From a virus (lineage: Duplodnaviria; Heunggongvirae; Uroviricota; Caudoviricetes): 64,000 nucleotides of DNA. The stretch is taken from IMG/VR virus record IMGVR_UViG_3300025713_000004; one strand, written 5' to 3'. A model generated the notes under the pieces. It saw only the letters and a program-made list of their open reading frames with translations. It was not told where the DNA came from and did not search any database. The translations under genes and the position numbers were made by a program. This document shows positions 14,241 to 61,066 of this stretch, in pieces (the first letter of the stretch is position 1; every line of letters begins with the position of its first letter).

Positions 14241-14253
14241 AAAAAAACTAATA

Positions 14254-30252: not shown

Positions 30253-30352
30253 TCAATAAAAAACATTAAAAATAATATGATATTTTCACATATTTTTCAT
30301 ATTCATTTTTTATTATATATTTATATTTAAATAAATTTATAAATAAAAATGT

Positions 30353-31174
30353 TTATTTTTCTTGAAGTTTACTTATATCAATTTCTCTATCTGTAGTGAA
30401 ATTAGACTCTTTAAACGCAGTTTCAAACCAAAATTTTCGTTCATCCATTGGCATATTTTTTAAATATCCATCAAATAAACTACCTTCACGATTAATTAAA
30501 TGTCTATATCCGATTTTTGGTATTGCAAATATTTTAGATGCATTATTTAATGCTCTAAGAATAAATTCATACATAAAAGTTAGTTTTATGTTTCTTTTAT
30601 ATCTACCCAAATTAATAAATTCAGATTTTTTTATTGCAGCACCACTTAATTTAAAATCAGTATATTGTTTTATTGAATTTAAATTCAAATATCCCAATTC
30701 ACCATTTTCACCAACAAATTGTTGTGACCAAACCATTTCATTAGTTAATTTAATACCTTTATTTTCATTTGTTACTTCAATCATCATTATTAAAAAAATA
30801 TCAATGTTGGGATATGCTTTTACATATTCATTAATATTTTTTAAATACGTTAACCCCAATTCGTCATCAAATTCAAGAACAGTAAAATAATCAGTATTAA
30901 CACTATCAACAGCAAGATTTACCTGAGATTGATAATCAGTATTTCCATTATTTTTTATTAGTTTAAAATTATAATTAAAATATTTTTCTTTAATAAAATT
31001 ATTAATTTCATTTTCTATTGTTGATGAATAAACAATTAAAACGTCTGGTTTTTCAACTTCTTGTTGATTTATAATTGATTCAATCGCTTTATTTAAATAT
31101 GTTGAAATATTATCATTAAATTCATGTATTGGAATTATTATTGATGTACTATTCATTTTCTTTAGTATTTTCAT
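30353..31174 (-). CDS. glycosyltransferase, family 2-like
   Basis: The N-terminus SIIIPIHEFNDNISTYLNKAIESIINQ has the GT2 signature (hhhhP.......hh..ShhsQ). An acidic DxD-like segment lies downstream (LEFDDEL). Confidence 0.5.
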   Translation of the reverse strand: MKILKKMNSTSIIIPIHEFNDNISTYLNKAIESIINQQEVEKPDVLIVYSSTIENEINNFIKEKYFNYNFKLIKNNGNTDYQSQVNLAVDSVNTDYFTVLEFDDELGLTYLKNINEYVKAYPNIDIFLIMMIEVTNENKGIKLTNEMVWSQQFVGENGELGYLNLNSIKQYTDFKLSGAAIKKSEFINLGRYKRNIKLTFMYEFILRALNNASKIFAIPKIGYRHLINREGSLFDGYLKNMPMDERKFWFETAFKESNFTTDREIDISKLQEK

Positions 31175-32327
31175 TATTGTTATTTTTATTAGATTCTAAT
31201 GCGGATTTAAATAAATTAATTCTTTCGTTTACATATCCACTATAAATCTCAACCAATTCTTTTTCAGAATTATCTTGATTGTATTTTGATGCAATCTTAT
31301 CCATATTATCATAAATTTCTTTAGATATATTATCATCTAAAAATTTGACTAATGTATCTGCAATTAAAATTGGTAAATCATAATAATTATTAGTCCAAAC
31401 GCCACAATTATCAATTGCTTTTATTGGTTTATCACCATCTTCACTTCTTTCAACCATATATTCAGGAATAATATCTGGTTTTAAACAAATAGGAACAACG
31501 CCTGATTTCATACATTCAAGAGGAAATGTACCAAAACTTGAGATTCTATCAATCCAAACAGCAGCAAAATTTTCACTCAATCTTTTTGCAAAATCAACCC
31601 TACGCATTTGTTGTGGTGGTTTACTTTTAGTTAACATTGGGTCAAAAGTAATCCAATTAAATTCAGGGTATTTAAGAAAAAACAATTTAACTAATTTACT
31701 AATTTCATTTGGATTTCTACCAATAATTGATACTACTGGTTTTTTTGGTCTTTCTGTTTTTTCAAAATAATCAGGAATTCCTATTGTATATGATTTAGTT
31801 TTATATTTTTTTCCAAAATATAATTCAATAAATTCCTCAAGTGTTTTTGAAGTAGTAATAATATTATTAATACCAAACATTTCCCAATTTATACCTGGTA
31901 TTAAACTATTTAACATATAATCAATAGATTGTAAAAATCCTATTCTTAAACAAGGTAAATTTTTAGTATGTTCCATGATATTTGAATAAACTTCAGGAAT
32001 TATCATAATATCTTCAGGACCGACACTTAATTTATTATTTTCATCCATTGATAAATGTTTAATATCGGTTAATTCACTCTCAATCCAATTAGGTTTTACA
32101 TAATCATTTTTTTCTGTGAATATAATTACATCATATCCCATTCTTTTTACAACAGTGGCATGAAAATATAACTCATATATACTTGCTACTGGTGATTGTG
32201 ATTCGGGTATACAAAAAATAAATTTAGATTTTTTATTTTCTAAATTATTTAAAGAAATTTTAATTTTTTCAAATTTTTCTTTTTCAACATCTTCAATTGA
32301 TTTTTCAATATTTTTATCCATTTTCAT
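31149..32327 (-). CDS. glycosyltransferase, GT-B/GT4-like
   Basis: The C-terminal region FGTFPLECMKSGVVPIC resembles the GT4 E-x7-E region (EGFGLVLLEAMACGLPVI). Confidence 0.4.
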   Translation of the reverse strand: MKMDKNIEKSIEDVEKEKFEKIKISLNNLENKKSKFIFCIPESQSPVASIYELYFHATVVKRMGYDVIIFTEKNDYVKPNWIESELTDIKHLSMDENNKLSVGPEDIMIIPEVYSNIMEHTKNLPCLRIGFLQSIDYMLNSLIPGINWEMFGINNIITTSKTLEEFIELYFGKKYKTKSYTIGIPDYFEKTERPKKPVVSIIGRNPNEISKLVKLFFLKYPEFNWITFDPMLTKSKPPQQMRRVDFAKRLSENFAAVWIDRISSFGTFPLECMKSGVVPICLKPDIIPEYMVERSEDGDKPIKAIDNCGVWTNNYYDLPILIADTLVKFLDDNISKEIYDNMDKIASKYNQDNSEKELVEIYSGYVNERINLFKSALESNKNNNNENTKENE

Positions 32328-33066
32328 TTTTTTTATATTTTATTATTTTTTCAAAATCCTTATTTTCTATTAATTCTGCTATTTGTAAAATTTCCATTGA
32401 ATATGAATTAAACTTTTCATTATATGGTCTTTTTACTTTTATTAGTTTTTTAAACCAAGGTGTTCCTAATTTTAATATTTCTGGGTCTGTTGTTATTAAA
32501 ATATCAATATTATTCCACATTTCAATAGATTTTTTTACAAATCGAATGTTTTCAAATCTACTTTTAATTTTACTTAAAAAGAATAATGTGGGTGGTATAC
32601 TAAATCTATTTTCAACAGAAAATAATGTAAAATTAACAGTATCACAATATTTATCATAAAATTTATTAACATCAACATCCATATTTCTATACATCATCGG
32701 TGCTGAACCATGTATTTCAAATAAGTAATCTTCATACATGAATCTATTATAAACTTCTTTTGATGTTAATTTTATTTTATTCTCCTTTTTAAATAATAAA
32801 AAATCAGCAGGTGCTTCATTTTTATCATTCAATTGATATTCTAATGGACTTATATTTTCTGGAATATCTTCTGGCTCTTTAAGTTCTTTAATTATTTCTT
32901 CAACATCATTAAATTTATAATTATTAAAGAAATCATAAACATATTCCTGTTCTTTTGGAACACCATCTAAACCAAATTCTTCAACATAATACTTATCAAA
33001 TTGTAACCATTTCGCCCTTAATATTTCATCAATATCAATTCCAACATTTTTTTTATTTATTTTCAT
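32314..33066 (-). CDS. HAD-superfamily protein, possibly a 5'(3')-deoxyribonucleotidase-like nucleotidase
   Basis: The N-terminus VGIDIDEILRAKWLQFDKYY fits HAD motif I (DxDx[TV]) and the vDmDgVLadF start of NT5C-type nucleotidases. The call is low-confidence. Confidence 0.3.
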   Translation of the reverse strand: MKINKKNVGIDIDEILRAKWLQFDKYYVEEFGLDGVPKEQEYVYDFFNNYKFNDVEEIIKELKEPEDIPENISPLEYQLNDKNEAPADFLLFKKENKIKLTSKEVYNRFMYEDYLFEIHGSAPMMYRNMDVDVNKFYDKYCDTVNFTLFSVENRFSIPPTLFFLSKIKSRFENIRFVKKSIEMWNNIDILITTDPEILKLGTPWFKKLIKVKRPYNEKFNSYSMEILQIAELIENKDFEKIIKYKKNENG

Positions 33067-33331
33067 TTTCTAATTCATTTATTTGATAATTAAGTAAATT
33101 ATTTAATTTTTTCATCATTTCATTATGTTCTTTAATTAATGCTTCTTCAGTAACATATCTCGGATTAATACATTCAATTTTAGTATCAATTGTATTTGTT
33201 GGTATAACTATTATTTCACCTTCAAATCTTTCAGGTGTAATTTTTTTTGTAACTTTTTTTACAAAATCTTCAATATCTGCTAATCTAATATTAGCAACAC
33301 CAACATAAATAACTAAAATCATATTACTCAT
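33053..33331 (-). CDS. hypothetical protein
   Basis: 92-aa ORF. Confidence 0.35.
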   Translation of the reverse strand: MSNMILVIYVGVANIRLADIEDFVKKVTKKITPERFEGEIIVIPTNTIDTKIECINPRYVTEEALIKEHNEMMKKLNNLLNYQINELENENK

Positions 33332-33410
33332 TTTTAATTAATATTTTTCTATATATATAATACGTTTTTTTTATAAAAATCTTGAAATTTTTATAATTTT
33401 ATTTTTTTGT

Positions 33411-33420
33411 AGTATTTATA
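33411..33420 (+). promoter_or_regulatory. candidate late-promoter element AGTATTTATA
   Basis: The 10-mer is identical to those at 7573 and 14231. It lies 36 nt upstream of the ATG at 33456. Confidence 0.3.
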
Positions 33421-33455
33421 AAAAAAATAATGGTTATTTATAAAAATTTATAAAA

Positions 33456-34385
33456 ATGTCTGAAGAAAAAAATTTTTCTCAAAAAAAGGGTATTTCTGAC
33501 CTTCTAAAAAAATATAGAAGTCAAAAAGATAATGTTGAAAATGAAAATACAAATCAAATCAACATTCCAAAACCACAAGAAAATACACCTAATTTACAAC
33601 AATTTAATCATGAAGAATTTGAAAAAGCCATGTCTAAAGAAACCGACCCAGATTTAATTACAACTTATGAAATTGTTAAATTACCATCTAAAGGTTTATT
33701 TTATAAAAATGGTCTTTCTGAAATAAATGTCGAATATATGACATCAAAAGATGAAGATTTATTAACTACTTCATCATTAATTGAAAGTGGTGTTGTTTTA
33801 GACTTACTATTGAAAAGAAAAATAAAAACACCAAATGTTAATCCAGAAGATTTATTACCAGGTGACCGTAATGCAATTTTACTGTTTTTACGTATAACAA
33901 GTTATGGTTCTGATTATACTGTTCAAGTAACTGACCCAAGAACAGGTGTTCCATTTAAAACAACAGTTGATTTAACAAAACTTAAATATAAAAAAATTGA
34001 AGAAAAACCAAACGATAATGGTTTGTTTAGTGTTGATTTACCAATGCGTAAAAAAAATGTACTTTTTAAACTATTAACTGTTGGTGAAGATACAAGAATA
34101 TATAAAACTGCTGAATCTTTAAAAGAAGCAAAAAATGAAGAATTTAGTCAGTATTCTACCATGAGATTAGTTGCAAGTATTGTATCAATAGATGGTAATA
34201 CTAATAAAACATATATTAGTAAGTTTGTTGATGCAATGCCAGCATTGGATGCATACGCAATTCGTAAAAAAATGTTGGATGTTAGTCCTGATGTTGATAT
34301 GGATTATGTCTTTACTGCTAAAGATGGATATACTTTCAATGCTAATTTAACAATTGGTTTAGATTTTTTTTTCCCAAGCATCTAG
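33456..34385 (+). CDS. hypothetical protein
   Basis: The 309-aa ORF precedes the tape-measure gene and is a possible tail assembly chaperone by position. Confidence 0.45.
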   Translation: MSEEKNFSQKKGISDLLKKYRSQKDNVENENTNQINIPKPQENTPNLQQFNHEEFEKAMSKETDPDLITTYEIVKLPSKGLFYKNGLSEINVEYMTSKDEDLLTTSSLIESGVVLDLLLKRKIKTPNVNPEDLLPGDRNAILLFLRITSYGSDYTVQVTDPRTGVPFKTTVDLTKLKYKKIEEKPNDNGLFSVDLPMRKKNVLFKLLTVGEDTRIYKTAESLKEAKNEEFSQYSTMRLVASIVSIDGNTNKTYISKFVDAMPALDAYAIRKKMLDVSPDVDMDYVFTAKDGYTFNANLTIGLDFFFPSI

Positions 34386-34558
34386 CGGAAGATTATAAAA
34401 AAATGGTAAATGAAGAAATTTATGTTCTTACTAAACACGCTAAATTTCAAAGCGAATATATTGAAAATATACCCGTTTATCGAAGAAGATATTTTTTATA
34501 TCTGTTTGAAAAAGAAATGGAAGAATTAAAAAAACTACAAGAAAAAGAAATCAAAAAA

Positions 34559-34592
34559 AGACCAAGATTTTAAAATTTTGGTCTTTTTTTAT
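34559..34592 (+). terminator. rho-independent terminator
   Basis: agaccaagatttt-a-aaattttggtct is followed by TTTTTTTATTT. Confidence 0.55.
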
Positions 34593-34635
34593 TTATAATA
34601 ATCGTAATTTAAAATTTTATTAAAATTTACCAATA

Positions 34636-34645
34636 ACTATTTATA
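34636..34645 (+). promoter_or_regulatory. candidate late-promoter element ACTATTTATA
   Basis: It lies 16 nt upstream of the tape-measure ATG. The 11-mer AACTATTTATA is shared with the instance upstream of the tube gene. Confidence 0.35.
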
Positions 34646-34661
34646 GTAAAATATTATCACT

Positions 34662-37250
34662 ATGAGCAAAATGTCACCTGAAGAAGTTAGAAAAACATTT
34701 GAAGAATATCAAAAATTAAATAAAGAACTTCAAAAATCAAGAAAATCTTTAATTAATCTTGGTGATTATGAACGTGCTAGAGCAATTACTGTTGAAATTA
34801 TTGCAAATAATGAAAAAATTGTAAATCAATTAAAAAATAATACTAAAGGTTTAACAGACGAACAATTAAAACAATACAATATATTAATTGATGTTCAAAA
34901 AGAATTAAATAACGAACTTGATAATGAATATAAAAGAAGAAAACATATTATAAGTTCATTAAAACATAGTTTTGATTTATTAGTAAGTGGTTATAAATAT
35001 TTACAACAACAGGATAAAATCATAAAAAATACCATTCTTAATCTAGGAATGAGTGGGAACAAAGCAGAATTAATGCGAGGTTCTTTTGAAAGAAGTGCAA
35101 TGTTTGTTGCTAGATTGGGTGGTAATCTTGAAGTTATTCAAACCATGATGACTGGATTTGCCGATGAAACAGGTAGGTCACGTGCATTAACATCAGATAT
35201 GGTTAAGGATATTACTGTTATTGGTAAAGGTACTGGTCTTGGAATTGAACAGGCAACTAAACTTTCAGCACAATTTGAAGCAATTGGTATTAATACAAAA
35301 GGTGCTTTAGATTATGTTCAGGGTGTTGTTGATACTTCTGAAAGAATGGGTGTTAATACCACAAAAGTATTAAAAAATATTACTGATAATTTTAAAAAAC
35401 TACAAACCTTCCATTTTCAACAGGGTGTTAGAGGTTTTAGAGAAATGGCAGAATATGCTGAAAAATTTAAAGTTGATATTTCCGATGCATTAAATTCTGC
35501 TGAAATTGCAAGAACACTTGAAGGGGCTATTGGTATGGTAGCAAATTTACAGGTAATGGGTGGTGAATTTGCTAAATTGGATATGTTTGAAACACTATAT
35601 TTTGCACGTAATGACCCTGCTAAACTTCAAGCAAAAATTGGGGAAATGACAAAGGGTATTGTTACACTTCGTAAAAATAGTGATGGTACTTTTGAAAAAT
35701 TTATTAGTCCTGCTGACCGTGATAGGCTTGCTGCTGCTGGTAAAGCATTGGGTATTACTACGGATAAAATGACAGAAATGGCATTAAGAGCATTTGATAT
35801 CGGAAAAATGTCACAGGAATTATCTGGTATGGGTTTAACAAATGAACAAAAACAACTAATTGAAGGTGCTGCATTTTTTAATCAACAAACTGGTAAATTT
35901 CAAGTTCAACTTGGTGAAGATATGAAAAATATCAGTGAATTAACAATACAACAGGCTAAATCTTTTGCACAAGAACAAAAACTATTAAAAGACCGTGCAA
36001 AAGAAGCAATGACTTTTGATGAAACATTTAAAGCAACAATAGAAATGTTAAAAGCAGGATTATTACCATTATTAAATAATATAAATAAAGCATTGTTATG
36101 GATAAGTAAGTATTCAGATAAATTATTTGAAGGAAAGGGTATTGTTATTGCTGCTACCACATTATTTGCTGGTGCTAAATTATTTTTTCTTTCTTCAAAA
36201 CTTCTTAATAGAGCATTTGATAATTACATATCATATAATAAATTAAGTTTTAGAAATTTAGCAGCAACTAATTCTGGTGGTCTTTCTAGTCTTTCTAGTA
36301 AAAGTGTTGGTATTGGTGATTCATTAACACCAACAACAGGAAAAGGAAGTAGTGGTTTAGCAGATATGAGAAGGGGTATTGGTGCTGGTGCTGAAGCAAA
36401 GGGTATTGGAATGAAAAGACTTGGTACTGGTATTGGTGCTGGTGCTGAAGCAAAGGGTATTGGAATGAAAAGACTTGGTACTGGTGCAGGTATTGGTGCT
36501 GCTGCTTTAGGAATTGGTGGCGGTGTTGCACTTGCTGCTGTTGGTATTAGTAAACTTGCCGATTCTATGAGCAAATTGGATGAAAAACAATTATCTGTTT
36601 TAAAAGGAATTGCCATGACATTAGCCATTTCGTTTCCTGCTGCTGCTCTTGGTATTGCTATTGCAGGTGCTGCTGGTAAACTTGCTGCTCCAGGATTATA
36701 TGCACTTAGTGTTGCTGCTTTAGGAATAGGTGCTGCTGTTGGTATTGCTGCTGTTGGAATAGGAATTATGGCAAAAGGAATTGGTGAAATGATTGAAAAA
36801 AGTAAAGGTGCTGGTGATGCAATGCTTAGTGTTGGACTTGGTGTTAGTGCATTATCATTAGCAATGATGGGTTTTACAGCAGGTGCTTTAGGTTTGGGAG
36901 TATTTGCATTAACAATGAAAACAATAGCAAAACATGCCGATGCTGTTGAAAAGGTAGGTAATGCTTTTGGTAATATAAAAGCAGTAATGTCTGGAACAAA
37001 AGAAGATTTTGAAGCCGTTGAAAGTGCAGTTAAATTAATTTCAAGTGTGAATACAAATAAAGGTAGTGTATTTGCTGAACTTGCAGCATTATTAAAAACA
37101 CCTTTAAAAGTAGAATTTGAAAAAAATACAATACCTATTCAAACTGATGTAACGCTTGAAGTTGATGGTGAAAAATTAATGAATAAATCATTTACGAATA
37201 GAATTGCTGTTCAAAAATCAAATGATGCTAAACTTGGTAAGGTAAATTAA
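34662..37250 (+). CDS. tail tape measure protein
   Basis: The 862-aa protein lies downstream of sheath/tube. An N-terminal coiled-coil is followed by long Gly/Ala-rich transmembrane-like repeats (GIGAGAEAKGIGMKRLGTG..., AAALGIGGGVALAAVGI...). The overall architecture is that of a phage tape-measure protein. Confidence 0.7.
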   Translation: MSKMSPEEVRKTFEEYQKLNKELQKSRKSLINLGDYERARAITVEIIANNEKIVNQLKNNTKGLTDEQLKQYNILIDVQKELNNELDNEYKRRKHIISSLKHSFDLLVSGYKYLQQQDKIIKNTILNLGMSGNKAELMRGSFERSAMFVARLGGNLEVIQTMMTGFADETGRSRALTSDMVKDITVIGKGTGLGIEQATKLSAQFEAIGINTKGALDYVQGVVDTSERMGVNTTKVLKNITDNFKKLQTFHFQQGVRGFREMAEYAEKFKVDISDALNSAEIARTLEGAIGMVANLQVMGGEFAKLDMFETLYFARNDPAKLQAKIGEMTKGIVTLRKNSDGTFEKFISPADRDRLAAAGKALGITTDKMTEMALRAFDIGKMSQELSGMGLTNEQKQLIEGAAFFNQQTGKFQVQLGEDMKNISELTIQQAKSFAQEQKLLKDRAKEAMTFDETFKATIEMLKAGLLPLLNNINKALLWISKYSDKLFEGKGIVIAATTLFAGAKLFFLSSKLLNRAFDNYISYNKLSFRNLAATNSGGLSSLSSKSVGIGDSLTPTTGKGSSGLADMRRGIGAGAEAKGIGMKRLGTGIGAGAEAKGIGMKRLGTGAGIGAAALGIGGGVALAAVGISKLADSMSKLDEKQLSVLKGIAMTLAISFPAAALGIAIAGAAGKLAAPGLYALSVAALGIGAAVGIAAVGIGIMAKGIGEMIEKSKGAGDAMLSVGLGVSALSLAMMGFTAGALGLGVFALTMKTIAKHADAVEKVGNAFGNIKAVMSGTKEDFEAVESAVKLISSVNTNKGSVFAELAALLKTPLKVEFEKNTIPIQTDVTLEVDGEKLMNKSFTNRIAVQKSNDAKLGKVN
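36375..36482 (+). repeat. perfect 2 x 54-nt in-frame tandem duplication inside the tape-measure gene
   Basis: ggtattggtgctggtgctgaagcaaagggtattggaatgaaaagacttggtact occurs twice back-to-back (36375-36428 and 36429-36482). It encodes GIGAGAEAKGIGMKRLGT twice. Confidence 0.9.
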
Positions 37251-37706
37251 AAAATAATTTAATAAAAATAAAAACAATAAAAATTTGCAAATGTCAAAAA
37301 TTTTTTATAACTTTGCCAAGATTTTTATTTTCAATGTAAAAACAATAAAAAGGTAATATTTATTTATTTCAAATAAAAGTAAATAAAAATTCTATTCAAA
37401 ATCTTTTTTCGTTTCTACGAAACAAAATCAAAGTTATAATGTTTATAATTAAATTCTACGAATTTAACAAAAAACTTAGATGAAGGGCATATTATATTCA
37501 AAAATTTAAAATTTTTTTCATTTAAAAAAATCTTACCATTATAATTCATAATTTAAAAATTAAAAATTATTAACACACCTCAATAAAGGAATTGGTTTAA
37601 TTCAAAATTAAATTTTTCGAAAAAGAATATATTTTCCCAATGTAAAGATAATACATATAAAACAATTTAACAAGTATTTATTAAAAATATATAGGATTAT
37701 ATACCA

Positions 37707-40700: not shown

Positions 40701-40955
40701 CCAATGATTGCAAAGGTTACATTACAAATGAATGTATTGGGTGGTCAATCACTGTCAGGACCTATCGATGCACTTCAAAATGCTGTATCGTATAACTATT
40801 ATGCCAATTCAACTTTTACTAATACAGGGATTTATAAAAAGGCAAGTAGAATTGCAAGGGAACAACAAGCATATTTTAAAGAAATAAAAAAGGATATTAT
40901 TGATAATATGAAAAGTAGATATAACGAATTAAAAACAAATAATAATTTATCATAA
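37707..40955 (+). CDS. large tail/baseplate-associated protein with an OmpA-like peptidoglycan-binding motif
   Basis: The 1082-aa protein sits between the tape-measure and gpX-like genes. The C-terminal third contains LEGYASRHGDNIDGYNTILVERRLEAAKIFILKRL, resembling the OmpA/MotB C-terminal signature (G.TD..G....N..LS..RA.AV...L). Confidence 0.45.
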   Translation: MDINLPENSSNLIRKDYIIYNDINYTLEEFLNVILNLNNFDNKNNIHYGDGVYTFDEFINFILYRNLKENRYSFDLDYKDYATSSAGNLFRFNNDTKLGNFGNALLDVIPQYNSLNLSNTLIGRGIDFGLFGNITPLESIGSVMLGKQMTFNAVSQAARTTADYLPSINIQNLFTNEPIFSKPADYSITKLNITGFDFVDNLLSPSFYKSQRIDSNYEHIINENEIVDYTGKGQLNELFRQLNFNFYKFNSLYEYRVKYNIKGQKDLIDELKGKRFDFFYNPYSILYGSDMIKTYSDKLPETYAGAEEYVSDIHDISFFYGKTTNQELTEIPKDFITNYDSEDDIQNNLIWGKDGVGQIVHFNLDNSRDKYTKELINNNIENFKIKRGLLEYTKNLLNVSSGFYVDMTKKIYRDLNKRIYGFNGSPVWEKELTKYSSKNFKGRKEGIRQHNALDKYDKFVKAIRFDGNIAYNKSGNNKDSVIYNSVMPKIHPIRDDKGNVDNKNMMFSIENLAVTAVKDELNNIGYIDDEDGSQIPISEVGPFNGRIMWFPPYGIELNETSTAKFDSTVMVGRNEPIYTYMNSERSATLSFVLLIDHPPHLINYMGEEEYKKKIANFFAFGGDDYYEDSVSISDLTKRIEDIKQEIDNIKKDNLINSGEIVADGLNLENLPSIYFPNDYPKEGGVSNVIDYIYNNKYEISNKNSTIEGDEGSSGLNDNIYVLSADTSQYNAINENCLLNKTLKEVYVDNNNKKVIGIKLEGYASRHGDNIDGYNTILVERRLEAAKIFILKRLNALFPNNDFVDEDIFIEIVNKGSNYSDDVDDKNINEVKGDRRVELSFVHNGKTISEDGTVSDNQYELEIKELEKELENLYTTLYRARNRKDNIFTERTKEDKAIFDNFESIKTNHYKPMYHSQTPEDFHKRLTFLQQCTRQGSSVRNRNIKDKDNLTSKNSVFGKQPICILRVGDFFYTKVIINNVTVDYNDTTWDMNPEGFGMQPMIAKVTLQMNVLGGQSLSGPIDALQNAVSYNYYANSTFTNTGIYKKASRIAREQQAYFKEIKKDIIDNMKSRYNELKTNNNLS

Positions 40956-40966
40956 ATTTTATTATT

Positions 40967-41287
40967 ATGCCAAAATTAGATTATAATAGATATGCCATAT
41001 TAAAAAAGCCTGATGGTTCAATTGAACCCATGCCTTTTGTTGATTTACCTGTTAATACTAGTGATAAGTATATTTTTTGGAGTAGTGGTAGTGATAGGTT
41101 AGATAAATTATCACAAAAATATTATAATAATCCTTTTTACGATTTTTTAATATTATATGCCAATAATGAATATACAAATGAATTTGATATTCCTGATAAT
41201 GCATTGATTAGAATACCATTCCCATTAGAGAGGGCAATTTATGATTATGAATTAATTTTAAAAAATCATATGCAACAATTTATTTGA
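40967..41287 (+). CDS. tail protein X-like (LysM-like fold)
   Basis: The 106-aa protein has KYIFWSSGSDRLDKLSQKYYNNPFYDFLILYANNEYTNEFDIPDNALIRIP, which follows the LysM / P2 gpX pattern (Y.V..GDTL..IA..YY......ILAAN.......LP.G..L.IP). Confidence 0.5.
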   Translation: MPKLDYNRYAILKKPDGSIEPMPFVDLPVNTSDKYIFWSSGSDRLDKLSQKYYNNPFYDFLILYANNEYTNEFDIPDNALIRIPFPLERAIYDYELILKNHMQQFI

Positions 41288-41336
41288 TAATTTAATTTAT
41301 TTATATTAATATTGCAAAATATTAAATTTTTTATAA

Positions 41337-43451
41337 ATGAAAAATAATATTGTTGTTGTTTTTTCATCCCATTTATCTGAAGAAGAAAATCAGAAATTTA
41401 TTAAACATATTAACAATACCATTGGTAAAGTTAAACATGATGTAATTTGCTATTCAAATTTTAATCAGTATAGTCTTACTGAAATTTATAATAAAGCGAT
41501 TAAAGAACATTATAAAAAGGATTCTATATTTGTTGTTTGTCATAATGATATTATTATAGGTACGAGAGATTGGGGTAAATTATTGCTTTTTAAATTTAAT
41601 CAAACAAATTTTGATATTATTGGTGTTGCAGGTAGTACCTATTTACCTGAATCCTGTGTATGGTGGGAAGATAGAACAAAAATGGTTGGTATTGTTGACC
41701 ATACGGATGGATATTCTATTTGGACAAGTGAATATTCTAAAGAAAAAAAGGGTGTGATTACACCAGTTGTTTTGGTTGATGGTCTTTTTATTTCTTTTAA
41801 TCCCGATACGATTGTACATAGATTTGATGAAGAATTTAAAGGGTTTCATCTTTATGATTTATCATTTTGTATTCCAAATTGGCTTGATGGTTGTGATATT
41901 GGTGTAACAACAGATATTAGAATATTACATAAATCAATTGGTGAAACAAATCAACAATGGGATGAAAATAGAAAACAATTAGCGGAAAAATATTATGATG
42001 AATTACCAATAACAATATTACCAGAATATAATGATTTAATTGTTAATTTATTAACAGAGCCAAAAGTAACAGTAATTATTCCAACAAAAAATAATTTAAA
42101 GTATATTAAAAATAATATTTATTCTTGGAATAATGTTGTTAATTATGATAATTATGAAATAATTATTGCTGATACGGGTAGTGATGAAAGTGTAATTAAG
42201 GAATATGATTCATTTCTTTCAAATAAAATTAAATTAATAAAATATAATTATTATAATTTTGCTAAAATAAATAATGATGTAGTAAAAAATCATACATCTA
42301 ATGATACAGAATTAATACTATTTTGTAATGATGATATAAAATTATTAAATGATAGTCTTAGTAGATGTATTGAAATTTATAATCAAAATAAAGATACTGT
42401 TGGTACTATTGGTATTAGATTACATTATGGGGATGGTAGTATTCAACATAATGGGATTTTAATGTATAAAGAAAATAATATTTTAAGACTTACACATAAA
42501 GATATTAGAAAAACTGAAAATTATTTTACTGGTATTAATTACGATTCATTGGGAAATACTGGTGGGTTTATGTTAATTAAAAAAGATTTATTTTTAAAAT
42601 ATGGTGGGTTTAATGAAAACTATATTGAATGTTTGGAAGATGTTGAATTAAATATTAAATGTAAATACGATGGATTAAAAAATATTACAGTTAGTGATGC
42701 TGTTGCAATTCATTATGAATCTATAAGTAGAAATAAAATTTTGGGTGGTAATGAAAGATTTATGGTTGATTATAATAGATTGATGAATTTTGTAAACGAT
42801 TTTGAAAATAAAGAAAGAGAAATTAAAAGAAATAAAGAAAATAAAAATCCAATTATTAATATTATAACAAGAACACACGATAGACCTAAACATTTTAAAA
42901 TATGTAGAGATTCAATTTTAAATCAAACAAATAAAAATATTAATCATATTGTTGGTAGTGATATTGATTGTGATTATTGTGATGATTATATTAAATTAGA
43001 ATTACAAGAAGTTCAACCAAAACCAGATAATTTGGCATCATATCCTGCACCTTGGAATTTACACATAAATGTTTTACATAACTATGTAAAAGAAGGTTGG
43101 ATTATGTATTTAGATGATGATGATATGTTTATTAATGAAAATTCTTTAAGTATAATAGTGAATCATATTGAAAATGAAGATGAATTATTGCTTTGGAGAG
43201 TAAACATTAATGGAAGAATAGTTCCAGATGATAATGGTTTTGGAAAAATTATTGCAGGGAATATATCTGGTATTGGTTTTATGTTTCATTCGAAATATTT
43301 ACCAATTGATTGGGTGTCTTGGAATTTTGGTGATTATAGGGCTATTAAACAATTAGAAAATAAAAAATTAAAACAGAAATGGATTAACCAAGTGTTAACA
43401 AAAACACAAGGTGTTCCAAATTTAGGAAAAAAACCAAATGATTATGAATAG
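41337..43451 (+). CDS. multidomain glycosyltransferase (two or three GT2-like modules)
   Basis: The 704-aa protein has repeated GT2 N-terminal signatures (VVVFSSHLSEEEN...; VTVIIPTKNNLKYIKNNIYSW...IIIADTGSDES; IINIITRTHDRPKHFKICRDSILNQT) and DxD-like segments (CNDDI, LDDDDMFI). Confidence 0.6.
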   Translation: MKNNIVVVFSSHLSEEENQKFIKHINNTIGKVKHDVICYSNFNQYSLTEIYNKAIKEHYKKDSIFVVCHNDIIIGTRDWGKLLLFKFNQTNFDIIGVAGSTYLPESCVWWEDRTKMVGIVDHTDGYSIWTSEYSKEKKGVITPVVLVDGLFISFNPDTIVHRFDEEFKGFHLYDLSFCIPNWLDGCDIGVTTDIRILHKSIGETNQQWDENRKQLAEKYYDELPITILPEYNDLIVNLLTEPKVTVIIPTKNNLKYIKNNIYSWNNVVNYDNYEIIIADTGSDESVIKEYDSFLSNKIKLIKYNYYNFAKINNDVVKNHTSNDTELILFCNDDIKLLNDSLSRCIEIYNQNKDTVGTIGIRLHYGDGSIQHNGILMYKENNILRLTHKDIRKTENYFTGINYDSLGNTGGFMLIKKDLFLKYGGFNENYIECLEDVELNIKCKYDGLKNITVSDAVAIHYESISRNKILGGNERFMVDYNRLMNFVNDFENKEREIKRNKENKNPIINIITRTHDRPKHFKICRDSILNQTNKNINHIVGSDIDCDYCDDYIKLELQEVQPKPDNLASYPAPWNLHINVLHNYVKEGWIMYLDDDDMFINENSLSIIVNHIENEDELLLWRVNINGRIVPDDNGFGKIIAGNISGIGFMFHSKYLPIDWVSWNFGDYRAIKQLENKKLKQKWINQVLTKTQGVPNLGKKPNDYE

Positions 43452-44145
43452 TAAAGTAGATATTTACATTGCATCTTTATGGCGACAAGGACATGTTGTA
43501 AATACAGTAAATTCAATATTGCTTAATCCAGAAGCGGAAAAAATTACTATATCATGTAATTTGTATACTGATGAACAATGGGGATATGTTAATAATGAGT
43601 TGAGAAATTCAAAAATTAAATTACATAGAACAAACAATGAAAAATGTAGTAATGAAAAATTAAAATATATAAATAACGGTAATAGCCCATATATTGCGTT
43701 AATTGATGATGATTTAATTTATCCTTCGGATTATTTAAAAAAATTAATTGATGGTTGTGAAAAATATCAAGGACACGTATCATTACATGGGGTAATATTA
43801 AATCCAAGACCAATTAGGTCATATTATCATAATAGAATAGTATATAGAGGTTTAGGAAATGTGAATGAAGATGTTAAAGTAGATATTATTGGTAGTGGAA
43901 CATTATTATTTAAACGTGAATGGTATGATGATTTGGATGAATGGTATGATAGGTGTAGTAATGTATCAATGGATGATATTTATGTTAGTTTTTTTGCAAG
44001 AAGTAAAAACATTCCAAGATATGTTTTAGCACATAAAGAAGGATATTTAAAACATAAAGAAATAAAAAAAGAAGATTATTATGTTTTTGATAAATATGTA
44101 AATAATGATAAGGTACAAACAGATTTTATAAATATTTATTTTTAA
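43438..44145 (+). CDS. hypothetical protein (possible glycosyltransferase-like)
   Basis: The 235-aa protein has IALIDDDLIYP, resembling a DxD sugar-transferase motif. The call is weak. Confidence 0.35.
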   Translation: MIMNSKVDIYIASLWRQGHVVNTVNSILLNPEAEKITISCNLYTDEQWGYVNNELRNSKIKLHRTNNEKCSNEKLKYINNGNSPYIALIDDDLIYPSDYLKKLIDGCEKYQGHVSLHGVILNPRPIRSYYHNRIVYRGLGNVNEDVKVDIIGSGTLLFKREWYDDLDEWYDRCSNVSMDDIYVSFFARSKNIPRYVLAHKEGYLKHKEIKKEDYYVFDKYVNNDKVQTDFINIYF

Positions 44146-44155
44146 TATAATTAAC

Positions 44156-44740
44156 ATGCCTTTTGAAAGTAAAAAATATTGGATTGATAGGTATGCAACA
44201 CATGGTGGTATTTCTGGTGTTGGTTCTTATGGAATATATGCCGAATATAAAGCAAATATTATAAATAAATTTTTTATTGATTATAATATTGAAACTGTTT
44301 TGGAATTGGGATGTGGTGATGGTAATCAATTATCTTATTTAAAACCAAAAAAATACTATGGTTATGATATTAGTGATTTTGTAATTAGTAAAAATAAAAA
44401 AAGATTTAATGGCTCTAATTATTTTTTTACTACAAATTTAGATGAATTGAAATCAAAAAAATTTGATGTGGTTTTATCTTTGGATGTTATTTACCATTTA
44501 ATAGAAGATAATAATTATTATGAATATATGAAAAATTTATTTTTCTTTTCTAAAAAATATGTAATTATATATTCAACAAATAATAATAATAATTGGTTGT
44601 CTGAACATTGTAAAAATAGAATTTTTATGAATGATATTTCAAATAATTTTAAATTAATTAATAAAATTGATAATCCATTAAAAGGAGAAAATACACAATC
44701 TGATTTTTATTTTTTTAAAAATGAAAAGAACGAGATATAA
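44156..44740 (+). CDS. class I SAM-dependent methyltransferase
   Basis: Motif I VLELGCGDGNQLSYL and the acidic post-I residue (YGYDISD) fit the Rossmann methyltransferase fold. Confidence 0.6.
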   Translation: MPFESKKYWIDRYATHGGISGVGSYGIYAEYKANIINKFFIDYNIETVLELGCGDGNQLSYLKPKKYYGYDISDFVISKNKKRFNGSNYFFTTNLDELKSKKFDVVLSLDVIYHLIEDNNYYEYMKNLFFFSKKYVIIYSTNNNNNWLSEHCKNRIFMNDISNNFKLINKIDNPLKGENTQSDFYFFKNEKNEI

Positions 44741-45626
44741 CATAAAAAAACAAATAAAGAAAAAGATTAATAATACTATAACTAAGAAAAATATAGTAAT
44801 AAATAATCTAAATAAAAAAAATAACATTAATTTAAATTCTGATAAAATATATGAAAATAAAAAATCAGAATCAAAAAATAATTTTCCTAATATTGTTGAA
44901 AATAAAAAAATAGAATCGAAAAACGATATTATTAACATAATTGAAAATAAAATAAAAAACTATGATTTGATTGATAATTTAAATCCAAAAATATTATTTT
45001 TAATTTCAAATTATGAAAGAGAAGAAATGTTAAAACAATTAATTTCAGAAATTAAAACAATAAATGCGGATTATATTATATTTGATGATGTATCATCATA
45101 TAAAATTGATGACCCGAATGTGATTATTAATGATTATCATAGAGGAAAGGGTGATTATTGGAAAACTTTTGATGATATGTTTAAATATTGCAAGGAAAAT
45201 TATTATGATATATATGTTTTTACACCTAATGATTTTTTAAATTATAAATTTGATAAAATTATAACATATGGTGTTAATTTAAGAAATTATGAATATATAT
45301 TTAATATTATAAATGATGGTAGAAAATCTTGTTGGGTTGGTATTGAAGAAAAAATTTTAAATAATAAAATAAAATTATCGTTTTTTACTGATTGTGCATT
45401 TTTTACTAATTATAAAACACTTAGTTTATTAGAATTTAAAATGAATAAAATTAATTTAAAACCCATTCCAAATCGAGGGTCTTTTGTTGGAGAACAACTT
45501 ACAAGAAGATTGGTAAACCTAAAAGTGCCAATATTTACACCTATTAAAAGTTTTGCATATCATGGTGACCATGAATCATTAATGAATCCTGAAGTTAGAA
45601 AAATTCATAAAATAATTTCATTATAA
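44721..45626 (+). CDS. hypothetical protein
   Basis: A 301-aa ORF with an Asn/Lys-rich N-terminus and a structured C-terminal half. Confidence 0.4.
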   Translation: MKRTRYNIKKQIKKKINNTITKKNIVINNLNKKNNINLNSDKIYENKKSESKNNFPNIVENKKIESKNDIINIIENKIKNYDLIDNLNPKILFLISNYEREEMLKQLISEIKTINADYIIFDDVSSYKIDDPNVIINDYHRGKGDYWKTFDDMFKYCKENYYDIYVFTPNDFLNYKFDKIITYGVNLRNYEYIFNIINDGRKSCWVGIEEKILNNKIKLSFFTDCAFFTNYKTLSLLEFKMNKINLKPIPNRGSFVGEQLTRRLVNLKVPIFTPIKSFAYHGDHESLMNPEVRKIHKIISL

Positions 45627-45631
45627 AAAGA

Positions 45632-46315
45632 ATGAATATGAAAAATAATGTTGTTATAAAAAATTTTAAATATGATAATTTTCAATATTCATTTAAAGGA
45701 GTTGAAAATGAACATTTTTTTAAACAAATACCTTGGTATGAACAAGAATTATTAGAAAATATTAGTAATTTAAATTTAAATGGTGTTTATGTTGATGTTG
45801 GTGGTAATATAGGAAATCATTCATTATTTTTTGCCAATCATTGTAATTCAACAAAATTATATATATTTGAACCAGAAAATTTTTGTTTTAACATTTTAAA
45901 TGAGAATTTATCAAAAAATTCAAAAAAACAATATGTTTTAAGAAATATTGCTTTATGGAACAAAAAAGATGAATTAAATTTAATTAAATATGAAACATAT
46001 CAAAATACTGGAATATCGAAAGTAATTGAAAAAAATAAAAACAATGACAATTTATTATTTATAATTTCAAATACATTGGATGATGAAATTTCATTAAATG
46101 AAAATGTTGTGTTGATTAAAATAGATACTGAAGGTGCTGAAAGAAAAATACTTGATGGTGGTATAAATTTAATAAAAAACAAATTACCTGTTATTATTTG
46201 TGAAGCAGCAACAAGTGAAGAATTTAAAGAAATTGATGATTTTTTAAAACCTTTGGGATATAAAACACCCACAAGAAGATTTAATGCAACACCAACATAT
46301 ATTTGGGTTTGTTAA
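45632..46315 (+). CDS. FkbM-family methyltransferase
   Basis: GVYVDVGGNIGNHSLFFANH is the FkbM-domain signature (hhDhGAN.G..S..F). Confidence 0.6.
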   Translation: MNMKNNVVIKNFKYDNFQYSFKGVENEHFFKQIPWYEQELLENISNLNLNGVYVDVGGNIGNHSLFFANHCNSTKLYIFEPENFCFNILNENLSKNSKKQYVLRNIALWNKKDELNLIKYETYQNTGISKVIEKNKNNDNLLFIISNTLDDEISLNENVVLIKIDTEGAERKILDGGINLIKNKLPVIICEAATSEEFKEIDDFLKPLGYKTPTRRFNATPTYIWVC

Positions 46316-46345
46316 ACTATATTTATTATGTAAAAAAATAATATT

Positions 46346-47101
46346 ATGGATAAAGTATTAGTTATTGGTGATAGTTGTATTGATGAATTTCAATATGGTG
46401 TTTGTGAAAGAATTAGTCCTGAAGCACCAGTGCCTATTTTTAAGAGTTTGTATGGTGTTCAATCTAGTGGTATGGCAAGTAATGTTAAAAATAATTTAGA
46501 AGGTTTAGGTATTTCGTGTGATATAATTACAAATACTATGGTAAAACCACATAAATTAAGATTTGTTGATAAAAAAACAAATCAAATGTTACTTAGGGTT
46601 GATGGTTATGATAGGATTGTTGAAAAAGCAGAAGAATATTTAGTTAATATTAATTTTAATGATTATGATGCTATTGTAATTTCAGATTATGATAAAGGTT
46701 TTCTTACTGAAAATACTATAACAAATATAACAAATAAACACAAATTAGTTTTTTTAGATAGCAAAAAAAAGTTTGGAAAATGGGCAGATGGTATAGAATT
46801 CATAAAAGTTAATGAAAATGAGTTTAATAATAATTCAAAGTATTTAATTGATGATTTTAAGGGTGAATTAATTATTACCTTGGGGGATGAAGGTGCTAGA
46901 CATAATGATGTTTTATATCATGTTGAACAACAATATGCTATTATTAATTTAGCGGGTGCTGGTGATACTTTTTTTGCAGGTTTTGTGGCAAATTATTTAG
47001 AATTTGGAAATATTCCAAAAGCAATTAATTTTGCAAATAAATGTGCTTCTTGGGTTGTTTCCCAAAAAGGTGTTGGTGTTATAAATAAAAGTAATATATG
47101 A
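46346..47101 (+). CDS. sugar kinase, D-glycero-beta-D-manno-heptose-7-phosphate kinase-like (HldE/RfaE domain I homologue)
   Basis: The N-terminus VLVIGDSCIDEFQYGVCERISPEAPVPIF matches the HldE kinase start (ILVVGDVMLDRYWYG...RISPEAPVPVV). NLAGAGDTFFAGFV is the ribokinase/pfkB anion-hole motif. Confidence 0.65.
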   Translation: MDKVLVIGDSCIDEFQYGVCERISPEAPVPIFKSLYGVQSSGMASNVKNNLEGLGISCDIITNTMVKPHKLRFVDKKTNQMLLRVDGYDRIVEKAEEYLVNINFNDYDAIVISDYDKGFLTENTITNITNKHKLVFLDSKKKFGKWADGIEFIKVNENEFNNNSKYLIDDFKGELIITLGDEGARHNDVLYHVEQQYAIINLAGAGDTFFAGFVANYLEFGNIPKAINFANKCASWVVSQKGVGVINKSNI

Positions 47102-60850: not shown

Positions 60851-60923
60851 GTACAATTAACTCAATGGATAGAGTGTTCATTCACAATATGAAATATTGT
60901 TGGTTCGATTCCAACATTGTAAA
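60851..60923 (+). tRNA. tRNA (73 nt), anticodon uncertain
   Basis: It folds as a cloverleaf: acceptor gtacaat/attgtaa with a G1.A72 mismatch; D-stem actc/gagt with a GG-containing loop; a perfect anticodon stem ttcat/atgaa with loop tcacaat; T-arm gttgg-ttcgatt-ccaac. The loop reads ACA at positions 34-36 but has C instead of the near-universal U33, so the identity is unsure. Confidence 0.45.
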
Positions 60924-60956
60924 AAAATAACAAACAAATTTTCTGTTTTTTGAAAT

Positions 60957-61042: not shown

Positions 61043-61066
61043 CAAAAAAACGTTCTTTATATAAAT

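Follow-up and report, generated by a model that had tools for sequence, protein, structure and literature searches.

A conserved set of predicted glycosyltransferases and a hypervariable glycan island interleaved with the tail genes of an uncultured T4-like phage

What would a tailed phage make with a series of predicted sugar-transferring and methylating enzymes whose genes are interleaved with those of its tail? The question is raised by a 64,000-nucleotide (nt) stretch of the Caudoviricetes record IMGVR_UViG_3300025713_000004, hereafter called the window, along which all positions are numbered. In this window a pair of glycosyltransferase (GT) genes on the minus strand (30353-32327, block 1) and a plus-strand block of transferase and methyltransferase genes (41337-46315, block 2) lie on either side of tail genes. 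A preliminary description of the window read both blocks as embedded in the tail module and proposed glycosylation of tail or baseplate proteins, with a serotype-conversion cassette as the alternative. The gene boundaries given there match our coordinates, and the enzymology it inferred is right, i.e., several GTs, two methyltransferases and a supply of nucleotide-heptose. Our analysis indicates with high confidence that the two blocks are parts of one phage-encoded glycan-assembly system, composed of a conserved core and a variable island, and we propose tentatively that its acceptor is a virion protein.

The window derives from a large uncultured T4-like myovirus (jumbo phage) with a very low guanine-plus-cytosine (GC) content of ~24%. 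Metagenomic contigs of 185 kb and 220 kb encode these proteins as well, and the sequence inspected amounts to ~74 kb of a genome of ~185-220 kb. Approximately 20 related metagenomic phage loci, designated by L-numbers, were compared, and the window proteins were mapped onto them by tblastn.

Block 1 closes the minus-strand operon p92b-p250-p392-GT273. The final gene, GT273 (30353-31174; 273 amino acids, aa), encodes a GT-A (GT2-like) enzyme, as first described, with a weak match to Pfam Glycos_transf_2 (PF00535) that is above the cutoff (30.4 bits, cutoff 23.3, E 4.6e-7). The second transferase, p392 (31149-32327; 392 aa), had been called GT4-like, and here the support is structural. The protein has no Pfam match even at E<=10 and none in NCBIfam or PHROG, and no sequence profile places it in GT4. 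The AlphaFold (AF2) model of p392, calculated from 39 homologs, has a two-Rossmann GT-B fold (mean predicted local distance difference score, pLDDT, 81; predicted template modeling score, pTM, 0.83). Foldseek retrieved 138 PDB matches to this model at E<=1e-3, the first being AmGGT (8xsg; E 2e-13, template modeling score, TM, 0.62-0.70), followed by the GT4-type enzymes PglH (which ranks third), GtfA, BshA, PimA and WsaF. Its viral structural neighbours in BFVD are generic GT1/GT4 enzymes. The T4 enzymes AGT and BGT are not among the best 50 PDB or the best 50 BFVD matches, and each match listed there is GT4/GT1-type. At the level of the structure model, p392 is confirmed as a GT4-like glycosyltransferase.

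The remaining two genes of the operon are less easily named. The conserved partner p250 (32314-33066, minus strand) overlaps the GT-B gene and is 47-72% identical in relatives. It has 291 distant homologs, and one of the 50 that were scanned matches Pfam NT5C (E 7.7e-5), while the best match in a profile search of the PDB was the deoxyribonucleotidase 3bwv (E 0.6); as a weak lead, p250 is possibly a divergent NT5C-like enzyme of the haloacid dehalogenase (HAD) superfamily. The first gene, p92b (33053-33331, minus strand), is recognized by conserved synteny, and in relatives it is adjoined by PhoH.

The entire operon was found, in the same order, in every relative that covers the region. Identity across relatives is 58-70% for GT273, 64-72% for p392 and 52-68% for the first module of the leading transferase of block 2 (see below), in comparison to 71% for the tail tube, 56-64% for the sheath, 39-68% for the tape measure and 33-40% for p1082, a presumed hub protein. 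A total of 708 homologous clusters of p392 exist in public metagenomes, and the best 120 of the 708 are 64-72% identical and lie on phage-like contigs of 95-372 kb. Because they are kept in order in all covering relatives and are approximately as conserved as the tail tube, both transferases of block 1 are, by these sequence comparisons, core genes of a large phage clade and do not form an accessory cassette.

Block 2 begins with a multi-module transferase, GT704 (41337-43451, plus strand; 704 aa), which we refer to as the anchor. It had been described as a three-module GT2 protein, and two of these modules stand. Module 1 matches Glyco_tranf_2_5 (PF13712) over aa 8-219 (nt 41358-41993; 89.3 bits, E 4e-25) and module 2 matches Glycos_transf_2 over aa 245-421 (nt 42069-42599; 49.2 bits, E 7.5e-13), both above the cutoff. 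Module 3 (aa ~491-704, nt ~42861-43214) scores 17.5 bits, below the cutoff of 23.3 (E 0.004, profile positions 2-120). A DDDD motif and an N-terminus resembling that of GT-A enzymes are visible by eye, and the module is at most a probable third GT2-type domain. Alignment by hhalign of the GT modules with each other and with GT235, p301, GT273, p213 and p250 told little, as even the two certain GT-A modules reached no more than 5.6% probability.

The position of the anchor is fixed across the clade. Upstream lies p106 (40967-41287, plus strand), the 5' boundary gene, which is 51-68% identical in relatives and always immediately precedes the anchor transferase. The 3' boundary gene p213 (49095-49736, plus strand), identified by synteny, overlaps the stop codon of the last gene of the heptose cassette described below, is 42-60% identical in loci keeping synteny and has 505 homologous clusters, with top matches up to 66% identical. 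From the anchor through p213 the genes are tightly packed or overlapping. Between these boundaries every relative begins the island with a homolog of anchor module 1, which stands alone or is fused to GT2 or GT4 partners. The commonest form has two modules (Glyco_tranf_2_5 and GT2; ~490-505 aa), and the three-module form accounts for ~9 clusters.

What follows the anchor differs from phage to phage, from the anchor gene alone to more than 11 kb before p213 is reached. The minimal islands, consisting of the anchor only, are those of L011-14, L021 and L025. A medium island (L022) carries a GT2, a methyltransferase and a PglD-like acetyltransferase. Among the large islands, that of L009 holds a GT2, a GT-D-like protein and two Methyltransf_24 genes; that of L016 holds five further GT-type genes, two methyltransferases, a UDP-GlcNAc 2-epimerase, an FkbM gene and a PfkB kinase; that of L020 holds a GNAT gene, three GT2 genes, a DegT aminotransferase, a GT9 heptosyltransferase-family gene and a methyltransferase; and that of L024 holds several GT2-type genes, one GT32-type gene, four methyltransferases, an epimerase and a PfkB-cupin-miniHAD-nucleotidyltransferase cassette. 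The island of the window itself counts among the large ones. Given the fixed site and the varying content, the stretch 41337-49101 represents a single allele of a glycan island that is hypervariable across the clade. Comparison with related phages, which the preliminary description had called for, showed block 1 in every covering relative and the island reduced in some to the anchor. Since the GC content of the island and its GC at third codon positions (GC3, ~0.10) equal those of the rest of the genome, the island is not a recent import.

Two further observations concern the anchor. A two-module enzyme of the anchor type (P0233, 54% identical) is encoded in another setting, on a 149.6-kb contig of ENA ERZ1426734, where its neighbours are Peptidase_M23, PG_binding_3, a 'GlcNAc' glycosyltransferase, HtrL_YibB, a CCA-adding enzyme and a radical SAM protein. 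Because of this different genomic context, the anchor enzyme is not confined to the syntenic clade. In L010 (~13600-14400) and L017 (~13630-14330), an extra gene of ~250 aa, with a KilA-N/Bro-type look by eye, lies between the anchor and the promoter-like element upstream of it.

Downstream of the anchor, the window's island encodes further transferases and two methyltransferases. GT235 (43438-44145, plus strand; 235 aa), the "further putative transferase" of the first account, proved to be GT2-like (PF00535; 29.7 bits, E 7.5e-7, above the cutoff) and belongs to the variable part of the island, with homologs that are 62-63% identical in L008 and L022 and ~30% identical elsewhere. The next gene encodes a class I S-adenosylmethionine (SAM)-dependent methyltransferase (44156-44740, plus strand; 194 aa) that matches Methyltransf_12, _23, _11, _31 and _25 (E 1e-8 to 9e-11, with Methyltransf_12 at E 9e-11) and has 39-50% identical homologs in L016 and L022. 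It is followed by p301 (44721-45626, plus strand; 301 aa), a gene that the first account did not mention. The protein has a lysine- and asparagine-rich repeat N-terminus (tandem repeats at 44752-44952) and a ~220-aa domain and matches no family; it is 26% identical (E 4e-15) to a 357-aa island protein of L024 that carries a weak GT2 match, and is possibly an additional GT-A. An FkbM-family methyltransferase (45632-46315, plus strand; 227 aa) ends block 2, recognized by TIGR01444 (96.2 bits, cutoff 37.7, E 2.3e-27) and by Pfam Methyltransf_21 (PF05050; 54.1 bits, cutoff 22.7, E 2.6e-14). Overall, profile searches upheld the GT signatures of GT273, of modules 1-2 of GT704 and of GT235, and gave no match for p392. 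Both methyltransferase assignments were upheld by the same searches.

The direct connection to a heptose pathway that had been noticed in the window is borne out. A PfkB kinase gene starts 31 bp after the FkbM gene and opens a cassette of five genes that overlap or abut. The HldA-like PfkB sugar kinase (46346-47101, plus strand; 251 aa) belongs to the heptose-7-phosphate kinase family (TIGR02198, rfaE domain I; 121.7 bits, E 3.5e-35, under the equivalog cutoff of 345; PfkB E 2e-17) and is 48-50% identical in L016 and L024. A cupin of 127 aa follows (47098-47481, plus strand; Cupin_1/Cupin_2 E 1e-8, weak MannoseP_isomer and Lyx_isomer matches), which is 52% identical in L024 at the same position. 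Its PDB matches are to generic cupins, oxalate decarboxylase and the Cap5F C-terminal domain only, and no specific activity can be assigned. The third gene encodes a minimal HAD phosphatase of 96 aa (47478-47768, plus strand), a candidate for a GmhB-like step, in which four HAD motifs were recognized by eye (DIDNT, WTGR, the K in NNKP and the DD in LIDDK); the match to HAD_PNKP is weak (E 0.018), and the protein is 61% identical in L024. An HldC-like nucleotidyltransferase (47765-48190, plus strand; 141 aa) matches rfaE domain II (TIGR02199; 109.2 bits, E 1.5e-31, under the cutoff of 181.5) and CTP_transf_like (E 3e-15). The last enzyme, ADP-glyceromanno-heptose 6-epimerase HldD (48187-49101, plus strand; 304 aa), passes the TIGR02197 equivalog (313.4 bits, cutoff 274.6, E 1.6e-93). 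Between L024 and the window, three comparable cassette genes are 50-61% identical.

The family membership of the kinase and of the nucleotidyltransferase is clear, and the context of these genes points to heptose as their substrate. Heptose is probably one of the donors of the system. No SIS-domain protein, and thus no SIS-type GmhA, occurs among the window open reading frames scanned. The cupin, a candidate sugar-phosphate isomerase or epimerase, may stand in for the isomerase step of GmhA, or the host may supply GmhA. A predicted ADP-heptose cassette without GmhA is new here.

All enzymes of block 1, block 2 and the heptose cassette are soluble, with a maximum 19-residue hydropathy below 1.4 and no transmembrane segment. 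Furthermore, no gene for Wzx, Wzy, WaaL, an ABC transporter, a phosphoglycosyl-transferase, GtrA/GtrB or an Oac-type enzyme was found in the window's island or in ~10 related islands. The alternative that had been offered, a serotype-conversion cassette, is not supported in its classical form, as neither transmembrane segments nor genes for GtrA, GtrB, Gtr(type), Oac, Wzx, Wzy or WaaL were seen there. A looser variant, in which soluble GTs may act on host lipid-linked intermediates, is taken up below.

Based on these results, the clade carries four conserved GT domains, i.e., the GT-A/GT-B pair of block 1 and the Glyco_tranf_2_5 and GT2 modules of the anchor. In the island of this phage they are joined by a probable third GT module, one or two more GT-A enzymes, the two methyltransferases and the five-gene nucleotide-heptose cassette. 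We propose that the conserved enzymes would work in the cytoplasm and build the constant inner part of an oligosaccharide on an acceptor that is itself conserved, and that the island enzymes would add a lineage-specific outer part, here with L-glycero-D-manno-heptose and O-methylated sugars. This arrangement, and assembly in the cytoplasm, are suggested because the GT set is conserved, the extending and modifying enzymes and the donor pathways are swappable, and all of these enzymes are soluble. The acceptor would be a macromolecule made by the phage, most likely one or more virion surface proteins, and the glycan may shield or diversify the surface of the particle.

Four lines of reasoning favour a virion protein as the acceptor. 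The core GTs are as conserved as the tail tube while other structural proteins, and presumably the hosts, have diverged, which suggests a conserved acceptor of phage origin. Membrane machinery is missing. A conserved core with a variable outer set recalls the virion glycans of chloroviruses and mimiviruses, the design as a whole is like that of giant-virus virion glycan systems, and mycobacteriophages offer a precedent among tailed phages. Finally, the nearest structure to the p392 model belongs to a family that elongates sugar chains on glycopeptides and oligosaccharides: AmGGT is a processive glucosyltransferase that elongates free oligosaccharides, and Agt homologs lengthen glucose chains on glycopeptides (PMC12159676). 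The position of the island directly after the hub-associated p106, kept in every relative, was also counted for virion glycosylation. That the whole clade coats its virions with a self-made glycan of constant core and hypervariable outer part, a phage 'O-antigen', perhaps with a cupin that replaces GmhA, is a bolder extension that we regard as unlikely.

A number of observations weigh against a virion acceptor, and several of them come from the regulatory signals. The motif [ACG][CG]TATTTAT[AT] occurs 18 times in the window; 16 copies are intergenic, and 14 are sense-oriented within 100 nt upstream of a start codon, mostly 23-65 nt upstream (e.g., at 22097, 25000, 25336, 33411, 34636, 37673 and 53266). 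The genes that it precedes include those for the sheath, p92, the tube, the hub, the tape measure, p1082 and p471; the form A[CG]TATTTATA stands before the sheath, tube, hub, tape-measure and p1082 genes. The motif is a candidate structural or late promoter. The T4 late promoter TATAAATA was considered and rejected, being not enriched (48 copies versus 36.6 expected) and not sense-placed upstream of structural genes; TATTTATA is the reverse complement of that core, and it is TATTTATA that is the oriented form. The A[CG]TATTTATA motif is absent from the front of both GT blocks. One copy of TATTTATA upstream of GT704 was rejected as a structural motif, as it lies in the spacer of a conserved TTGACA-N17-TAnnTTTG sequence.

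In the window, this promoter-like element at the head of the island reads TTGATA-N17-TAATATTG (41284-41314, plus strand) and is recognized by pattern match and by conservation in relatives. It is the sole match to TTGA[CT][AT]-N16-18-TA[ATG][ATG][AT]T within 150 nt upstream of the gene starts of the window. Homologous elements, TTGAC[AT]-N17-TAnnTTTG or, more loosely, TTG-N19-20-TAnnTTTG, were found in L008/L016 (at 13496), L010 (13538), L015 (13513), L017 (13566), L020 and L021 (both ~9950) and L011 (~13200). TAnnTTTG has been reported as the -7 element of Bacteroides promoters (e.g., PMC4747536), and the island element resembles the Bacteroidota -33/-7 promoter consensus. Intergenic TAnnTTTG in the window lies in the sense orientation upstream of 10 genes, versus 2 for its reverse complement. 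The resemblance and this orientation bias together give a hint of a Bacteroidota host. The element suggests that the island may be read by the host polymerase, apart from the tail genes. No terminator-like site was found between p106 and the anchor, and read-through is also possible. Due to the separate host-type promoter and the missing structural motif, co-regulation with the tail genes is not supported.

The genomic surroundings add to these objections. Block 1 sits among conserved genes without a known role that do not look structural, with PhoH beside it in relatives, which weakens the argument from tail placement. Downstream of block 2 lie p213, p234, p149, p691, p471 and p418, without assigned function, and then replication genes. 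As neither block has the structural motif, proximity to tail genes is weak evidence for the acceptor, and the 'tail module' context is physical only: the earlier statement that the blocks are embedded in this module holds for the interleaving of the genes and not for their promoters, for the structural motif or for the genes downstream. A search of the window proteins for serine/threonine-rich acceptor segments gave nothing convincing. We know of no glycosylated virions among T4-like phages. ADP-L,D-heptose, together with the GT9 gene of L020, is classically lipopolysaccharide (LPS)-core chemistry, and the most similar clusters, those of cyanophages, were published as acting on host-surface polysaccharide (PMC7824862).

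These last points lead to the strongest competing explanation, remodelling of the host envelope. Here the soluble GTs would act at the inner face of the host membrane on host lipid-linked intermediates (lipid A-core or undecaprenyl-pyrophosphate-linked units), and the host's flippase, ligase or export machinery would display an altered, heptose-containing and methylated glycan that blocks superinfection by competing phages or keeps progeny from sticking to infected cells and debris. The same gene kit in T4-like jumbo cyanophages such as P-SSM2 has been interpreted in this way (PMC7824862, section 3.4.10; PMC12801897). ADP-L,D-heptose is the donor for the LPS inner core, HldD is a bona fide equivalog, and L020 adds its heptosyltransferase-family gene. 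A conserved host-type promoter without the structural-gene motif would fit early 'takeover' expression, and hypervariability is what a receptor arms race would be expected to produce. However, neither the window nor the ~10 related islands contain a membrane component or initiating transferase of the kinds listed above, and the phages look like the lytic jumbo type rather than lysogenic converters. Moreover, the four GT domains form a strict core with 55-72% identity, in comparison to 33-40% for the hub protein, and acceptors on host surfaces should differ far more from one host to another. Overall, envelope remodelling is a possibility that we consider doubtful.

Hypermodification of DNA, which the preliminary description did not consider, is improbable. 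Under this explanation, the transferases, those of block 1 especially, would glycosylate modified bases of the phage DNA, with the heptose cassette providing the donor and restriction driving the diversity. Attachment of one or two heptoses to 5-hydroxymethylcytosine has been shown for phage clusters of HAD/kinase, cytidylyltransferase and GT-B genes, and viromes widely contain DNA glycosyltransferases of both the GT-A and the GT-B type (bioRxiv 10.1101/2023.12.21.572611). PglH, the third-ranking match of p392, is a structural neighbour of the DNA GT-B enzymes in the same study. In the window, block 1 lacks the structural-gene motif and lies beside PhoH in relatives, p250 is possibly a divergent NT5C-like deoxyribonucleotidase (the weak lead noted above), and a thymidylate synthase homolog and a Mom-family protein place nucleotide or DNA modification within the repertoire of the phage. 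On the other hand, no hydroxymethylase, TET/JBP oxygenase or C5-methyltransferase was found beside either block in the window or in the relatives examined. Such pathways are usually clustered (bioRxiv 10.1101/2023.12.21.572611); with ~74 kb of ~185-220 kb inspected, the absence is not conclusive. The T4 alpha- and beta-glucosyltransferases are outside the best 50 structural matches of p392 in PDB and BFVD. Up to 7 or more GT domains, together with methyl-, acetyl- and aminotransferases, imply an oligosaccharide beyond the mono- and disaccharide DNA modifications described (bioRxiv 10.1101/2023.12.21.572611).

The two proteins just mentioned were inspected individually. The thymidylate synthase homolog (10409-11479, minus strand; 356 aa) has a Lactobacillus casei-type insertion, matches ThyA structures (E 1.7e-57) and retains the asparagine that specifies dUMP; it is probably not a hidden hydroxymethylase, since it looks like an ordinary ThyA. 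It is the only such homolog in the window and lies 20 kb from the blocks. A Mom-family domain (E 7e-17) and a GIY-YIG nuclease domain are joined in one 402-aa protein (2091-3299), which suggests adenine-type DNA modification or a homing element and is not linked to the GT blocks.

Alternatively, the enzymes might decorate a host protein, such as a receptor or a defence protein, or make a small glycosylated molecule or an oligo- or polysaccharide that stays free or is secreted. Such a product would agree with the solubility of every enzyme, with AmGGT, the best structural neighbour of p392, elongating free oligosaccharides, and with the secondary-metabolite-like sugar clusters that Iyer et al. 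propose for some jumbo cyanophages (PMC7824862), yet the clusters contain no polyketide synthase, non-ribosomal peptide synthetase or similar scaffold enzymes, exporters or candidate host-target genes, nothing specific favours such a product, and we regard it as very unlikely.

The tail genes that the blocks flank were identified with unequal certainty. The window encodes a 917-aa tail sheath (phrog_23, E 9e-61) and a tail tube, both recognized by profiles. A T4 gp26-like baseplate hub protein (33456-34385, plus strand) likewise matches Pfam T4_baseplate (E 3.6e-10) and phrog_150 (baseplate hub), and its gene is preceded by two copies of the TATTTATA motif. The remaining tail labels of the first account, i.e., tape measure, a 1082-aa hub protein and gpX, are assignments by position, size and composition. 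The putative tape measure protein (34662-37250, plus strand; 862 aa) follows the hub gene, has a coiled-coil N-terminal half and a glycine/alanine-rich hydrophobic C-terminal half, and had no match in Pfam or PHROG profile scans. The next protein, p1082 (37707-40955, plus strand), is presumed to be a hub or tail-tip protein and is 33-40% identical in all relatives; it gave no Pfam, PHROG or PDB sequence match. Neither did p106, the gene that had been labelled gpX. No PHROG matches were obtained for p213, p234, p301, p92b, p126, p135, p303, p445, p286, p1082, p106, p691, p471 and p418, and PDB sequence and profile searches returned nothing for p1082, p106, p250, p213 and p286 beyond the match of p250 at E 0.6 given above. 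Of the five AF2 models of p213, only one was confident, and its fold matches in the PDB stayed at E 0.04 or above.

Several features of this region were noted in passing. An exact 54-bp tandem duplication (GIGAGAEAKGIGMKRLGT x2) lies at 36375-36501, in the glycine/alanine-rich and locally GC-rich (35%) part of the tape measure gene. Residues ~755-845 of p1082 have, by eye, an OmpA-C-like peptidoglycan-binding signature (LEGYASRHGD...N..L...R...GDRRVEL) with no Pfam support. The gap between the tape measure gene and p1082 (37251-37706) is a second insertion hot spot in relatives; in the window it measures 457 bp and contains no open reading frame longer than 44 aa, and in relatives it holds a MerR-like gene and a Dam methylase (L024, 3048-5765), a Bro-N gene (L025, 5458-6255) or a 234-aa gene (L020, 5225-5929).

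The phage itself belongs to a clade that is new here, with hundreds of metagenomic members and none among GenBank phages. Megablast of positions 30000-47500 against 50,697 phage records found no nucleotide-level relatives, and tblastn of p392 against GenBank phages found no matches. In the same collection, GT704 has matches to its GT2 domain alone, at 25-32% identity and in unrelated phage fragments, and the best match of the sheath is 34% identical, in Microcystis phage Mel-JY01 and T4-like cyanophages. An IMG/VR scan with the single p1082 sequence found nothing, while an alignment query found relatives. To our knowledge, the clade has no cultured member or host. Clade contigs were found within bins of metagenome-assembled genomes assigned to Candidatus Paceibacterota, Dojkabacteria and Vampirococcus lugosii, i.e., L023 (JBAZIW010000001.1, 363 kb, Paceibacterota), P0085, P0187 and P0259. 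These bins were judged to be small low-GC genomes into which phage contigs had been mis-binned; the contigs are probably jumbo-phage contigs and not host evidence. An alternative genetic code was ruled out as well, as TGA serves as a stop nine times and the code is standard.

Elsewhere in the window, an IS607-like unit (189-2076), consisting of a serine recombinase (Resolvase E 5e-19) followed by TnpB/OrfB_IS605 with a Cas12f-like TNB domain, represents a mobile element. A UvrD-type helicase of 1056 aa (3875-7045, minus strand; DNA helicase in PHROG) contains an intein (Hom_end_hint, Intein_splicing). Two adjacent tRNA genes (60851-61043) were called by ARAGORN as tRNA-Cys, with the unusual anticodon ACA, and tRNA-Met; Rfam confirms both and found nothing else.

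If the proposed virion glycan is real, self-made surface glycans, known from giant viruses and mycobacteriophages, would extend to tailed phages of Gram-negative-type hosts. T4-like phages would thereby gain their first case of virion glycosylation, and bacterial viruses a counterpart to the glycan systems of chloroviruses and mimiviruses; the design of core and island would suggest an arms race over recognition of the particle, in adsorption, defence or grazing. Should the envelope or DNA explanation be true, the locus would offer glycoengineering a small natural collection of transferases that can be exchanged for one another behind a conserved entry enzyme. For any acceptor, one fixed site with hundreds of metagenomic variants is a clean comparative handle, and the single anchor enzyme could settle a question left from the P-SSM2-type clusters of jumbo cyanophages (PMC7824862).

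We compared the locus with known systems. Serotype-converting cassettes (GtrABC, Oac) likewise represent phage-borne sugar modification; those cassettes are short, encode integral membrane proteins and belong to temperate phages, and none of their components was found here. DNA hypermodification clusters (Pyle et al., bioRxiv 10.1101/2023.12.21.572611) resemble the locus in combining GT-A and GT-B enzymes, a phosphatase/kinase and cytidylyltransferase that activate heptose, and diverse sugar chemistry. However, a C5-methyltransferase/5mYOX pair or a thymidylate-synthase-like hydroxymethylase lies beside them, and the sugars they attach number one or two, whereas the blocks described here have no such neighbour and many more transferases. 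The bacterial pathway to ADP-L-glycero-beta-D-manno-heptose (GmhA, HldE or HldA and HldC, GmhB, HldD) shares the kinase, nucleotidyltransferase and 6-epimerase, which are here separate genes of one cassette; unlike in bacteria, the cassette lacks an SIS-type GmhA and has a cupin as a fixed component, the HAD protein has 96 aa, and the kinase and nucleotidyltransferase score under their equivalog cutoffs.

Virion glycans are known from giant viruses and mycobacteriophages. In the mycobacteriophages, as far as the work of Freeman et al. (2023) is reported in PMC12619734, tailed phages use GTs of their own to place glycans on the C-termini of capsid and tail tube proteins, which act as a shield. 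Those are actinobacteriophages, siphoviruses and myoviruses of Gram-positive-like hosts, and C-terminal extensions resembling the acceptors outlined in that account were not recognized here. The giant viruses (chlorovirus, Mimivirus; PMC9614988) share with this phage soluble multi-domain transferases, separate sugar methyltransferases and sugar-nucleotide pathways of their own for bacterial-type sugars. In chlorovirus PBCV-1, for example, A064R has two GT domains and a methyltransferase domain and A111/114R has three GT domains, and A061L belongs to the same set (PMC9614988). The likeness extends to clade-specific cluster content and to composition and promoters like those of the rest of the genome, and the GTs of giant viruses are expressed early (PMC9614988). 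The giant viruses differ in their eukaryotic hosts and show no detectable sequence relation, and their glycans were chemically shown on capsids or fibrils, where the present case consists of genes alone.

The closest counterparts are the clusters of jumbo cyanophages (P-SSM2, S-SCSM1, S-SCSM2R; PMC7824862, PMC12801897), which belong to the same type of phage, a large T4-like myovirus. Their kit equals the one described here, i.e., an NAD-dependent epimerase, a cupin, a PfkB kinase, a HIGH-superfamily nucleotidyltransferase, several GTs and methyltransferases, and it also varies between relatives. By the definition given in PMC7824862, the locus belongs with the polysaccharide modification clusters of this type, as all components and polymorphism between relatives were found. 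The gene kit and its polymorphism are thus already described from jumbo cyanophages. The present phage is from a different clade, and what comparative sequence analysis adds as new is a strict core of four predicted GT domains set apart from an island beside the hub genes whose site is fixed and whose content is hypervariable, a conserved anchor transferase with a conserved, host-type promoter at the head of the island, and a predicted sugar pathway that is specifically that of ADP-heptose.

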